Below are positions 10,460-13,004 of a stretch of DNA of 64,000 nt, one piece after another. Numbering within the stretch: position 1 is the stretch's first letter; the number at the start of each line of letters is the position of its first letter. Origin of the DNA: Candidatus Latescibacterota bacterium (GTDB lineage Bacteria; Latescibacterota; UBA2968; UBA8231); NCBI GenBank assembly GCA_965217585.1, contig OZ244561.1, positions 5,696,001 through 5,760,000 of the forward strand, written 5' to 3'. Position numbers and translations under genes: made by a program. The notes beneath the pieces are model-generated. The model was not told where the DNA came from and made no database searches. It worked only from the letters and a program-made list of their open reading frames with translations.

Positions 10460-11551
10460 TCAAAAATCCATCGCCGGCGGTCCCGTGTAGCCAATGCTCT
10501 GCCACCCGGCGACATCGCCGCCCGTGAGGCGATAGGGGTGCGGATACAGCTTCAGCGTGCGGTCCGCAAAAGGCAGGGACACCCGCTCGTGCTCCCGATG
10601 GGCCGAGCGCACCAAGGCGATAGCCACTTCGAGCGAGTGGCGATAGTCGTCGCCGCTGCTATACGGCTCGGTGCCGGCCTGATGGGCACGTATCAGGCGC
10701 TCGACCGTATAGGCAAAAGCGTCCGCCGCTGGCTGATCCAAAAAGTCGGGATATACCGGAGAAGCCGCCGCGCCGGTCCCCTCGATTAGCACGGGCCGCG
10801 GGCGCGCCAAAAAGACCTGCCCGCGCTCGCCGCCGACCGAGATAAAGGTTGGCACGCGGCCATCAGGCTCAGGGGCGACGACCTCGCAGACGATGCCGCC
10901 GCTCAGCCCCAAACGACCGTACGCAGGCACATCCCCTTCCTCTACAGGAGTGCCTTTCGCCACGTATCCCGGCACCGCCGGCAAGGTGTACCCTTCCACC
11001 CACTCCACATCCATCCCCGTGAGGATGCGCAGGGCCGCGATCTGCACGCAACCGCCGCCCGATACTTCGGTCGGCAGCCCACCCGGGATCGCCGCCGAGG
11101 TCAGCCGCCCAATGTGCCCCTGCCGCACCCACTCGACCACCTCGGGCATATACGGCGTCGCCCATCCGGCCTGAGCGCAGCCGAACAACGTGCCGTGCTC
11201 TCGGCAGATGCGGATCATTTCGTCCGCCTCGTGTAGCTGGTGAGAAATCGGCTTCTCGCAGGACACGACCCGCACGCCAGCGCGAGCGCAGGTGGTGACG
11301 CAGGGATAGTTCTGGCCCACTGGAACGACTGCGGAGACGATGTCGGGCACTTCGGCCGCCAAAAGGCCGTCGAGATCGTCGTACACCTTCTCCACGCCGT
11401 AGCGCCGGGCGATGGCGTCCCGCCGCTCTCTGGCGCGATCGACGAGGCCGACAATCTCGCAGTTGGGATGGGCGGCATAGGCCCGCGTGTAGTAGCGGCC
11501 CCATGTGCCGGCCGCGCCGACGACGGCCACCCGGTATTGTTTATTAGTCAT
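10460..11551 (-). CDS. Gfo/Idh/MocA family oxidoreductase
   Basis: VAVVGAAGTWG, CEKP motif. Confidence 0.85.
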   Translation of the reverse strand: MTNKQYRVAVVGAAGTWGRYYTRAYAAHPNCEIVGLVDRARERRDAIARRYGVEKVYDDLDGLLAAEVPDIVSAVVPVGQNYPCVTTCARAGVRVVSCEKPISHQLHEADEMIRICREHGTLFGCAQAGWATPYMPEVVEWVRQGHIGRLTSAAIPGGLPTEVSGGGCVQIAALRILTGMDVEWVEGYTLPAVPGYVAKGTPVEEGDVPAYGRLGLSGGIVCEVVAPEPDGRVPTFISVGGERGQVFLARPRPVLIEGTGAAASPVYPDFLDQPAADAFAYTVERLIRAHQAGTEPYSSGDDYRHSLEVAIALVRSAHREHERVSLPFADRTLKLYPHPYRLTGGDVAGWQSIGYTGPPAMDF

Positions 11552-11565
11552 TGTTAGTCTCCTAA

Positions 11566-11594
11566 TTGACGGGGATAGAGGTCGCGGTTATATT
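11566..11594 (+). promoter_or_regulatory. Sigma70-type promoter for the tyrS leader
   Basis: TTGACG(11566-71)-N17-TATATT(11589-94). Confidence 0.75.
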
Positions 11595-11613
11595 TTTGCG
11601 CGGAGAATGAACG

Positions 11614-11673
11614 ATGCAGAACCTACGCGCCGATCGCCACTATTACTATACCCCGCTTCATAGAGAGGGGTAG
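11614..11673 (+). CDS. Putative tyrS attenuator leader peptide MQNLRADRHYYYTPLHREG
   Basis: GGAGA RBS 7 nt upstream; three consecutive Tyr codons TAT TAC TAT (11641-49); lies between the promoter and terminator upstream of tyrS. Confidence 0.75.
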   Translation: MQNLRADRHYYYTPLHREG

Positions 11674-11705
11674 TGCGTTCGCTTTATTGTCTAAACCGCG
11701 TGTAC

Positions 11706-11733
11706 AAGCCCCTGATTACAGGGGCTTTTTTTT
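11706..11733 (+). terminator. Intrinsic terminator (attenuator) upstream of tyrS
   Basis: AAGCCCCTG-ATTA-CAGGGGCTT stem-loop with a T8 tract (11726-33), 23 nt before the tyrS ATG. Confidence 0.85.
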
Positions 11734-11756
11734 GTGCCTATAAATAAGGAAATATA

Positions 11757-13004
11757 ATGAACATCATACCCGATCTTCAATTCCGCGGCTTGATCTACCA
11801 AGCCACTGACCTCAACGGCCTCGCCGCGCGCCTCGCCGCCGGTCCCGTCGTGCTCTACAATGGCTTCGACCCAACCGCCGACAGCCTGACGGTGGGCAAC
11901 CTCGTGCCGATCCTGCTCCTGCGCCGCTTCCAACTCGCCGGCCACAAGGTCATTGCCTTGGCTGGCGGCGGCACCGGCCTGATTGGCGATCCAGGCGGCA
12001 AGACCGAGGAGCGCCAGCTCAATGCCACCGACGTCGTGGCCGAGTGGACGCAGCAGGTCAAAGCCCAGTTAGAGCGCTTCCTCGAATTCGACGGCCCCAA
12101 CCCCGCAGTGATGGTCGATAACCACGCCTGGCTCGGCCAACTCGCGGCCATCGACTTTATGCGCGATGTCGGCAAGCACTTTCCCGTCCCCTACATGCTG
12201 GCCAAGGACTCGGTCGCCTCGCGCTTAGAAACGGGCATTTCCTACACCGAGTTCAGCTACATGGTGCTACAGGCGTATGATTTCTTGGTCCTCAACAAAG
12301 AATACGGCTGCGAGTTGCAGACCGGCGGCTCTGACCAGTGGGGCAATATCACCGCCGGCACCGATCTGGTCCGCCGCTCCGCCGGCAACCGGGCCTTTGG
12401 CCTGACCTGCCCGCTGGTGACCAAAGCAGACGGCACCAAATTCGGCAAGACCGAGGCGGGCACGGTCTGGCTCGACGTTGCTAAGACCTCGGCCTACCAG
12501 TTTTACCAGTTCTGGATCAACGCCGAGGACCAGAAGGTCGTCGATTACCTGAAAACCTACACCTTCTTGGAGCAGGACGCGATCCTCCAACTCGCCGAAA
12601 CCGTCCGCGACCAGCCCGAACGGCGCGAGGCCCAGCGCACCCTCGCTGCCGAGGCAACGACCATGGTGCATGGAGCCGATGCTGCTCGCCGAGCCGAACG
12701 CATCTCACACGCGCTCTTTTACGGGGAGTTTCAGGAGCTATCCGAGGAGGAAATCCTCGAAGGCTTTGACGACGTGCCAACGCACGCGATGGGTCAGGAG
12801 GAACTATGGCTGATCGATCTGCTCGTCGCGGCTGGCGTCTCCTCCTCCAAGCGCCAAGCCCGCCAAGACGTGCAAAACGGCTCAATCTACATCAACGGCG
12901 AGCGCTGCACGGACATGGCGCGGAGCATGCGGTGCCAAGAGGGCCTACACGGCAAATACCTAATCGTGCGCCGGGGCAAGAAGCAGTACACCCTCGTCTG
13001 CTAG
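11757..13004 (+). CDS. tyrS: Tyrosine--tRNA ligase
   Basis: YNGFDPTADSL, GGSDQWGNI, KFGKT (KMSKS-like), C-terminal S4 domain ending RRGKK. Confidence 0.97.
   Translation: MNIIPDLQFRGLIYQATDLNGLAARLAAGPVVLYNGFDPTADSLTVGNLVPILLLRRFQLAGHKVIALAGGGTGLIGDPGGKTEERQLNATDVVAEWTQQVKAQLERFLEFDGPNPAVMVDNHAWLGQLAAIDFMRDVGKHFPVPYMLAKDSVASRLETGISYTEFSYMVLQAYDFLVLNKEYGCELQTGGSDQWGNITAGTDLVRRSAGNRAFGLTCPLVTKADGTKFGKTEAGTVWLDVAKTSAYQFYQFWINAEDQKVVDYLKTYTFLEQDAILQLAETVRDQPERREAQRTLAAEATTMVHGADAARRAERISHALFYGEFQELSEEEILEGFDDVPTHAMGQEELWLIDLLVAAGVSSSKRQARQDVQNGSIYINGERCTDMARSMRCQEGLHGKYLIVRRGKKQYTLVC

Follow-up and report, generated by a model that had tools for sequence, protein, structure and literature searches.

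How is the gene for tyrosyl-tRNA synthetase regulated in a bacterium that lacks the RNA device usually associated with it? tyrS is a classic T-box gene. The question is raised by the tyrS locus of an uncultured Candidatus Latescibacterota bacterium, which lies in the 64,000-nt window examined here (the whole stretch of DNA that was analysed: positions 5,696,001 to 5,760,000 of the forward strand of contig OZ244561.1, assembly GCA_965217585.1). The host genome is a single 7.3-Mb contig with 59.5% G+C, and all coordinates below are those of the window unless another contig is named. In front of tyrS we find a short open reading frame (ORF) with three consecutive tyrosine codons, followed by an intrinsic terminator. 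Comparison with relatives leads us to conclude that this leader is very probably a ribosome-mediated leader-peptide transcription attenuator, which would tie tyrS expression to the supply of charged tRNA-Tyr.

All features of the leader lie on the plus strand. The leader ORF (MQNLRADRHYYYTPLHREG; 11614..11673) consists of 19 codons plus stop, from an ATG at 11614 to a TAG at 11671-11673. It falls under the 20-aa floor of the ORF listing and was confirmed by direct reading and with a script. The Tyr-Tyr-Tyr codons (TAT TAC TAT, 11641-11649) form the putative ribosome stall site. Tyr makes up 3.2% of the codons in 1639 long ORFs of the host genome, a frequency from which the chance of Tyr-Tyr-Tyr in an 18-codon ORF is calculated as about 5 in 10,000. 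Segment 1 (TACCCC, 11649-11654) is the 5' strand of a hairpin, 1:2. Segment 2 (AGGGGTA, 11666-11672, with the sub-strings AGGGG at 11666-11670 and GGGGTA at 11667-11672) overlaps the leader stop codon and could pair with either segment 1 or segment 3. The latter (core CCCCT, 11709-11713) belongs to the intrinsic terminator 3:4 (11706..11733), in which AAGCCCCTG (11706-11714), a loop of ATTA and CAGGGGCTT (11719-11727) are followed by a T-run that ends the terminator with eight consecutive T (11726-11733). The consensus scan gives this terminator nine pairs, six of them G-C (one site, against 0.5 expected in shuffles), and the hairpin has an energy of -16.1 kcal/mol. The 166-nt leader as a whole folds with a z of -2.98, and only 2 of 200 shuffles are equally stable.

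Upstream of the ORF is a sigma-70-type promoter (TTGACG at 11566-11571, a 17-nt spacer and TATATT at 11589-11594), seen by direct reading and by a consensus scan in which it matches the consensus at 10 of 12 positions; two promoter-like sites were found, against 0.3 expected in shuffles. Transcription would start near 11600-11602, about 13 nt 5' of the leader ORF. A Shine-Dalgarno sequence (GGAG, 11602-11605) is read directly 8 nt 5' of the leader ATG. Downstream, 23 nt separate the T-run from the tyrS ATG, and a tyrS ribosome-binding site (RBS; AAGGA, 11746..11750) lies 6 nt 5' of that ATG. tyrS itself (11757..13004) encodes a protein of 415 aa with Pfam matches to tRNA-synt_1b (3.1e-77) and the SYY C-terminal domain (1.9e-30). 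Both neighbours are on the opposite strand, the upstream gene divergent and the downstream gene convergent. Thus, the terminator belongs to no other gene, and tyrS is apparently monocistronic. A preliminary description of this DNA had placed a promoter, an RBS, the Tyr-Tyr-Tyr ORF, the pairing segments and a terminator here, and each of them is found at those positions. It had also likened the whole to the trp and pheM attenuators. The parts are indeed present in the order and spacing of such a leader, and the Tyr codons are conserved across the family, which supports the likeness as a prediction.

From these parts we infer a ribosome stall, a choice between pairings and a response to tyrosine. 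A ribosome would load on the nascent leader RNA. With Tyr-tRNA plentiful, it would reach the stop codon (11671-11673) and cover the G-run of segment 2; if no ribosome had loaded, segment 1 would hold segment 2 in hairpin 1:2. With segment 2 covered or held, segment 3 would be free to pair with segment 4, the terminator (11706-11727 and the T-run) would form, and RNA polymerase would halt 23 nt 5' of tyrS. With Tyr-tRNA scarce, the ribosome would stall on the Tyr codons at 11641-11649 and mask segment 1; once a Tyr codon occupies its A site, the ribosome is assumed to cover RNA to about 11653-11661 (some 12-13 nt downstream of that site). Segment 2 could then pair with segment 3, aided by a hairpin within the spacer between them, and the terminator would be blocked. 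tyrS would be transcribed and then translated from its own RBS.

Are the Tyr codons conserved? Within the genus, all 23 aligned loci have an ATG ORF of 18-21 codons with 2-6 Tyr codons in the same place. Five further genomes have the same, giving a Tyr leader and terminator before tyrS in 28 of 28 genomes examined (a count that leaves out one unexamined genome, one whose tyrS is truncated by the end of its contig and one, 58% complete, that has no tyrS match). The promoter columns ATTGAC and TTATAT and the terminator columns CCCCTG and GGGGCTTTTTTT are invariant in all 23 leaders, and the leader GGAG is kept in most. TAT and TAC swap synonymously at the leader Tyr positions while Tyr is retained, and insertions and deletions in the ORF occur in multiples of three (two extra Tyr codons in locus L013, one codon more or less in others). 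These interchanges and three-base indels indicate that the leader ORF is read as codons. TAT accounts for 75% of the 76 Tyr codons in the 23 leaders, versus 34% in genes. A second frame overlaps the ORF and reads Leu-Leu-Leu in the window; only some relatives have it open. Four loci (L004, L015, L016 and L017) have a different upstream neighbour, and there too the leader accompanies tyrS. In L020-L023, where four-fold sites of tyrS are 61-64% identical and neutral sites are near saturation, the terminator is 80-87% identical. Among all the genomes compared, G066 (locus L046) has its tyrS match in two parts, both inside a single open frame of 469 aa, and the matched stretch is about 120 nt longer than that of the window owing to an insertion.

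Conservation extends beyond the genus. In GTDB the order has a single family, represented in the collection by 76 genomes from 18 genera. A tyrS match is present in 39 genomes of the 17 other genera, and the DNA upstream of tyrS was taken from every one of these. A short ORF with at least two Tyr codons, ending shortly before a terminator and T-run, precedes tyrS in 25 of the 39; typical cores are Y-R-Y-Y-Y-Y, Y-Y-Y and Y-Y-R-Y-Y. One further genome has a possible leader (no clean T-run), in one the region is truncated where its contig stops, and one has homologous sequence without a canonical start. The element thus occurs in at least one genome of 15 of the 18 genera, or of 14 if at least two Tyr codons are demanded. 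The leaders are largely unalignable between genera, and their terminator stems range from 8 bp to 21 bp. What persists are the Tyr codons, a C-rich 5' arm of the terminator and a G-run near the leader stop, which corresponds to terminal Gly or Arg-Gly codons. In clade representatives, no residue of the ORFs that end at the terminator is as clustered as Tyr (score 36, against 29 for Arg and 26 for Gly), although its two codons are A+T-rich. When a covariance model is made from the genus alone, it retrieves full-length matches in other genera (E-values as low as 1.9e-6 in 13 kb); this speaks for a common descent of the leader RNA. Genus g22 (L140, L142, L145, L163 and L164) has an R-R-Y-R-R leader with 14-bp terminator arms, the 5' arm being complementary to 12 bases within the leader ORF.

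The same comparison bears on whether the leader ORF is simply an independent small gene with its own terminator, tyrS being driven by read-through or from another promoter. The ORF does have a good Shine-Dalgarno sequence and promoter, as such a gene would. Its peptide, however, is poorly conserved across genera except for the Tyr and Arg codons and the terminal Gly codons that make up the G-run. The element always travels with tyrS, only 23 nt lie between the T-run and tyrS, and the consensus scan did not find a second plus-strand promoter in that interval. An independent small gene is therefore a very remote prospect.

Could a known type of regulatory RNA account for the locus? The preliminary description had noted that no T-box consensus is present, and this was borne out: a permissive Rfam scan of 11000-12300 returned no T-box match even at E-values up to 10, and no T-box was found in any of 25 genus genomes. 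T-box identity was rejected on these two grounds. The same model does detect tyrS T-boxes in two Paenibacillus loci (L089, 122 bits; L092, 94 bits), whose TyrRS homologues are 57-61% identical. Rfam's Phe_leader (RF01859) scores 19.9 bits against a gathering threshold of 55, and Trp_leader (RF00513) 16.6 against 41. These permissive-threshold hits were rejected as sub-threshold and terminator-driven, the likeness being confined to overall architecture; at threshold, no Rfam family matches the tyrS leader RNA.

Is tyrS alone in having such a leader? A genome-wide scan for amino-acid-run ORFs before terminators found no other Tyr-run leader, and besides tyrS it found two cognate cases, thrS and trpE-G. 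The thrS leader (G000:C1 about 4022227-4022430; L111 127-300) has 35 codons, with nine Thr in the last thirteen, and its terminator lies 18 nt 5' of thrS; proS is found about 2 kb further on. This leader occurs in 27 of 31 genus genomes, with runs of roughly 3-12 Thr codons. The Trp leader (G000:C1 about 4659594-4659750; L112 144-290) has 26 codons including W-W-R-T-W and is followed by a terminator and then by trpE-G, a fused gene of 725 aa. trpS is located about 4.5 kb 3' of trpE-G on the same strand, directly behind a gene that by eye resembles trpC, and is probably within the trpE-G operon and co-regulated. No cognate leader was seen by eye at pheS, valS, leuS or metS. The rplT-pheS gap (G000:C1 about 673000-673050) contains a G+C-rich hairpin and a T-run, and a Phe-rich leader ORF is absent from it. 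Intrinsic terminators under a strict definition (stem of 6 bp or more, then at least six T) are rare, with 112 and 122 on the two strands of the 7.3 Mb; thus, those in 5' leaders stand out. In this lineage, several loci connected with tRNA charging appear to be under the control of ribosome-read leaders.

Can the leader fold in the alternative ways that attenuation would require? Hairpin 1:2 (11649-11672) folds at -12.6 kcal/mol. For the competing antiterminator, the preliminary description had proposed five pairs between segments 2 and 3. The helix in fact extends to 6 bp, AGGGGU (11666-11671) with GCCCCU (11708-11713), and stacks on an inner hairpin formed within the spacer (11673..11705) by 11673-11677 with 11701-11705 and by 11680-11682 with 11698-11700. 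So stacked, its energy is -16.3 kcal/mol, compared with -16.1 for the terminator. We computed stalled-ribosome folds for 45 distinct leaders, 30 of them from the same genus. If folding is limited to the RNA 3' of a ribosome placed on the last Tyr codon, the G-run at the leader stop takes up 5-7 of the 8 bases of the terminator 5' arm, with energies that resemble those of the terminator (window and same-genus leaders). Measured from the stop, the partner of the arm lies at -7 to 0 in the window; 29 of the 30 same-genus leaders agree, and the other one pairs at -16 to -10. In other clades it is close to the stop or within the 3' part of the ORF. Where terminators are very different the partner changes with the arm, and in L070 12 of 14 arm bases are paired. 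With the ribosome at the stop codon, the remaining RNA offers pairing of only -1.3 kcal/mol in the window, and about -1 to -3 across same-genus leaders. The alternative-pairing step is predicted from this architecture and from the positions of the segments.

An additional helix had not been foreseen. On the 23 genus leaders RNAalifold predicts a long-range helix between 11603..11617, which includes the leader Shine-Dalgarno sequence and start codon, and 11681-11693 in the spacer. In a MAFFT alignment of these leaders 92.9% of its cells are paired and 5 of 11 pairs show compensatory changes, a result matched by 0-1 of 500 shuffles. Slid registers all score far lower, and no other helix of the leader has covariation support as good. 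The helix may close the leader RBS once the spacer has been transcribed, and so stabilise the off state. Nine codons precede the Tyr run, roughly one ribosome footprint, and we speculate that a queued second ribosome could hold the helix open while the first is stalled.

Since this conserved structure exceeds what the classical model needs, it lends some weight to another explanation, in which a protein (for example TyrRS as an autoregulator) or a ligand binds the RNA and chooses between terminator and antiterminator, the ORF being incidental or secondary. One source names E. coli threonyl-tRNA synthetase as a self-regulating RNA-binding protein (PMC2965389). Such an RNA would not need to be translated, and would not require the conserved reading frame, ATG, Shine-Dalgarno sequence and three-base indels seen here. 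All Rfam families are below threshold, and inspection by eye noted no feature resembling an anticodon arm. We regard regulation by a bound protein or ligand as improbable, well behind attenuation by a translating ribosome.

Several observations weigh against the attenuator interpretation. The first concern the switch itself. The preliminary description had called for covarying stems. In hairpin 1:2, paired cells make up 83% of the alignment, compensatory changes are absent and shuffles are not exceeded. Helix 2:3 has two compensatory pairs and little covariation, and it is the unforeseen helix over the RBS that covaries best. When the upstream part of the window leader is shuffled, 2:3 pairing as good as the real one arises in 21 of 300 trials. 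In other leaders this control is near chance (79 of 300 in L060, 115 in L066, 66 in L078, 231 in L085 and 73 in L091), and the pairing is clearly beyond shuffles only in L057 and L070 (0 of 300 each). In G-rich leaders such as these, a C-run easily meets a G-run. Furthermore, when the 5' RNA is left free to pair under a stalled-ribosome mask, the minimum-energy fold of the whole leader keeps the terminator, so that antitermination would rest on kinetic and steric assumptions. We consider the 2:3 pairing the least well supported part of the proposed switch.

Other points against it come from the comparisons. The 18 closest relatives (L002-L019) have leaders with 82-91% identity and four-fold sites of tyrS with 83-91%; because these sites are as conserved as the leader, the 18 loci were dropped as evidence of constraint, and it is the deeper comparisons that carry information. 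A cross-genus alignment keeps the long-range helix, with all 11 pairs changed on both sides, and has 100% of terminator cells paired, but it was fitted to the model and is biased to the model structure, is patchy in distant rows and includes two spurious terminator-only rows. Four of the 39 genomes from other genera, belonging to three genera, have no leader before tyrS. In G049 (locus L146/L064), where the leader is absent, tyrS has two TGA and one TAG in frame. Finally, seven of the 39 have a terminator and a leader with one Tyr among Arg codons.

These seven genomes bring in the last alternative, in which the attenuator senses translation generally (ribosome availability or coupling) and the Tyr codons are merely tolerated or structural. 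Their element is retained with just one Tyr. As structural codons might, the Tyr codons and the bases next to them join predicted pairings, and the best-supported helix involves the leader RBS rather than the Tyr codons. A sensor of general translation would, however, leave unexplained why Tyr is the most clustered residue across clades when both of its codons are A+T-rich and the genomes G+C-rich, why TAT and TAC swap with Tyr kept, and why the number of Tyr codons expands to six. The downstream gene is always tyrS, and in the thrS and trp leaders the codons are again the cognate ones. We therefore think it unlikely that translation in general is what is sensed, and retain attenuation that responds to charged tRNA-Tyr. 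The preliminary description's expectation that the Tyr codons recur in relatives holds throughout the genus and, with the 25 multi-Tyr and seven single-Tyr leaders, through most of the other genera.

RNA libraries provide some further information. Four RNA-library runs yield contigs of relatives that are 90-95% identical to the window. Contigs from two studies run from the leader across the terminator into the beginning of tyrS (11532-11852 and 11532-11953), and are a weak indication, compatible with read-through transcripts, given that DNA can occur in such libraries. They differ from the window at 11643, 11646 and 11649, all synonymous third-position changes in the Tyr codons. Contigs of two runs from two studies (X1 and X3) both end at 11532, 34 nt 5' of the -35 element, which is not readable as a transcript end. 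The contig cover of another run (X5) is interrupted between 11689 and 11744; neither transcript ends nor transcript levels can be read from contigs.

Outside the family, in sister families of the same class, neither a Tyr leader nor a terminator was found before tyrS at any locus examined (absent from 12 of 12 loci in f2, 1 of 1 in f4 and 3 of 3 in f3). The TyrRS of f3 is of a different type, only 44-46% identical. In f2 and f4 (L024-L030 and L117-L122) a trpF-like gene immediately precedes tyrS, whose start codon is GTG or TTG, and the gap between the two measures a few bases to about 200 nt; in L118 this gap contains short tandem repeats. T-boxes, one per genome, are present in 7 of the 12 f2 genomes (loci L113-L116), with a weaker match in the single f4 genome.

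If the proposed mechanism is correct, the presence of the leader in 15 of 18 genera would mean that a ribosome-read solution has evolved for tyrS too. Annotation of the Rfam type would gain a new family, in a phylum with almost no known RNA regulators. The leaders form a natural series, with 1 to 6 Tyr codons and widely differing terminators, that could indicate how many regulatory codons a switch needs, and the RBS-sequestering helix, if real, adds a testable design feature. Practical value is modest, as the mechanism class is already known. We also offer, tentatively and as something that we doubt more than we believe, a combined proposal. The leader would be the founding case of a family-wide, Tyr-specific attenuator and, together with those of thrS and of the trpS-containing trp operon, one of a set controlling this family's tRNA-charging genes, a task for which Firmicutes rely on T-boxes. 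It would act as a three-state device in which the RBS helix closes after the spacer has been made, such that only a co-transcriptionally loaded ribosome reports on Tyr-tRNA, with room for a queued ribosome. One genus would have a single-Tyr sensor, which may mean context-assisted stalling.

How does the leader compare with known systems? Textbook cases of leader-peptide attenuation are trp, his, phe, leu, thr, ilv and pheST, and the nearest known system is the pheM leader of E. coli pheST, an established attenuator of a synthetase. To our knowledge, Tyr is the missing aromatic amino acid in this list. Full-text literature searches found no leader-peptide attenuator of tyrS; a survey by Lopatovskaya et al. 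2010 (Mol Biol 44:128), which reportedly covers attenuation of amino-acid and aminoacyl-tRNA genes, may bear on priority. Like the pheM/pheST system, the tyrS leader combines a short ORF of cognate codons with an intrinsic terminator before a synthetase gene, and its predicted signal is the charging of the cognate tRNA. It differs in the amino acid (Tyr, not Phe), in the gene, in its occurrence in Latescibacterota and in the extra, putatively RBS-sequestering helix, and the sequences are unrelated (Phe_leader 19.9 against 55). Its predicted 1:2, 2:3 and 3:4 logic is that of the trp attenuator (trpL; RF00513), with the regulatory codons at segment 1 and the stop at segment 2. trpL, in contrast, responds to Trp and governs a biosynthetic operon, and the tyrS leader is no member of RF00513 (16.6 bits against 41).

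Also akin to it are synthetase leaders from other phyla. pheST is named as the gamma-proteobacterial example of leader-attenuated synthetase genes and classical attenuators are predicted for Streptomyces trpS and leuS (PMC1262725), and a His leader is located upstream of hisS paralogues in bacilli (PMC2965389). Like the tyrS leader, those of Streptomyces and of bacilli are computationally predicted synthetase attenuators outside the Proteobacteria; they concern other amino acids and other phyla, and none is on tyrS. The tyrS T-box of Firmicutes (RF00230) acts on the same gene, and its tRNA-Tyr charging signal and terminator/antiterminator output are those predicted for the present leader. A T-box, however, reads the tRNA by direct RNA-RNA contact, whereas here the reader is predicted to be a ribosome translating Tyr codons. 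The mechanism class is thus a known one, and it is the amino acid, the gene and the phylum that are new in the attenuator predicted here.

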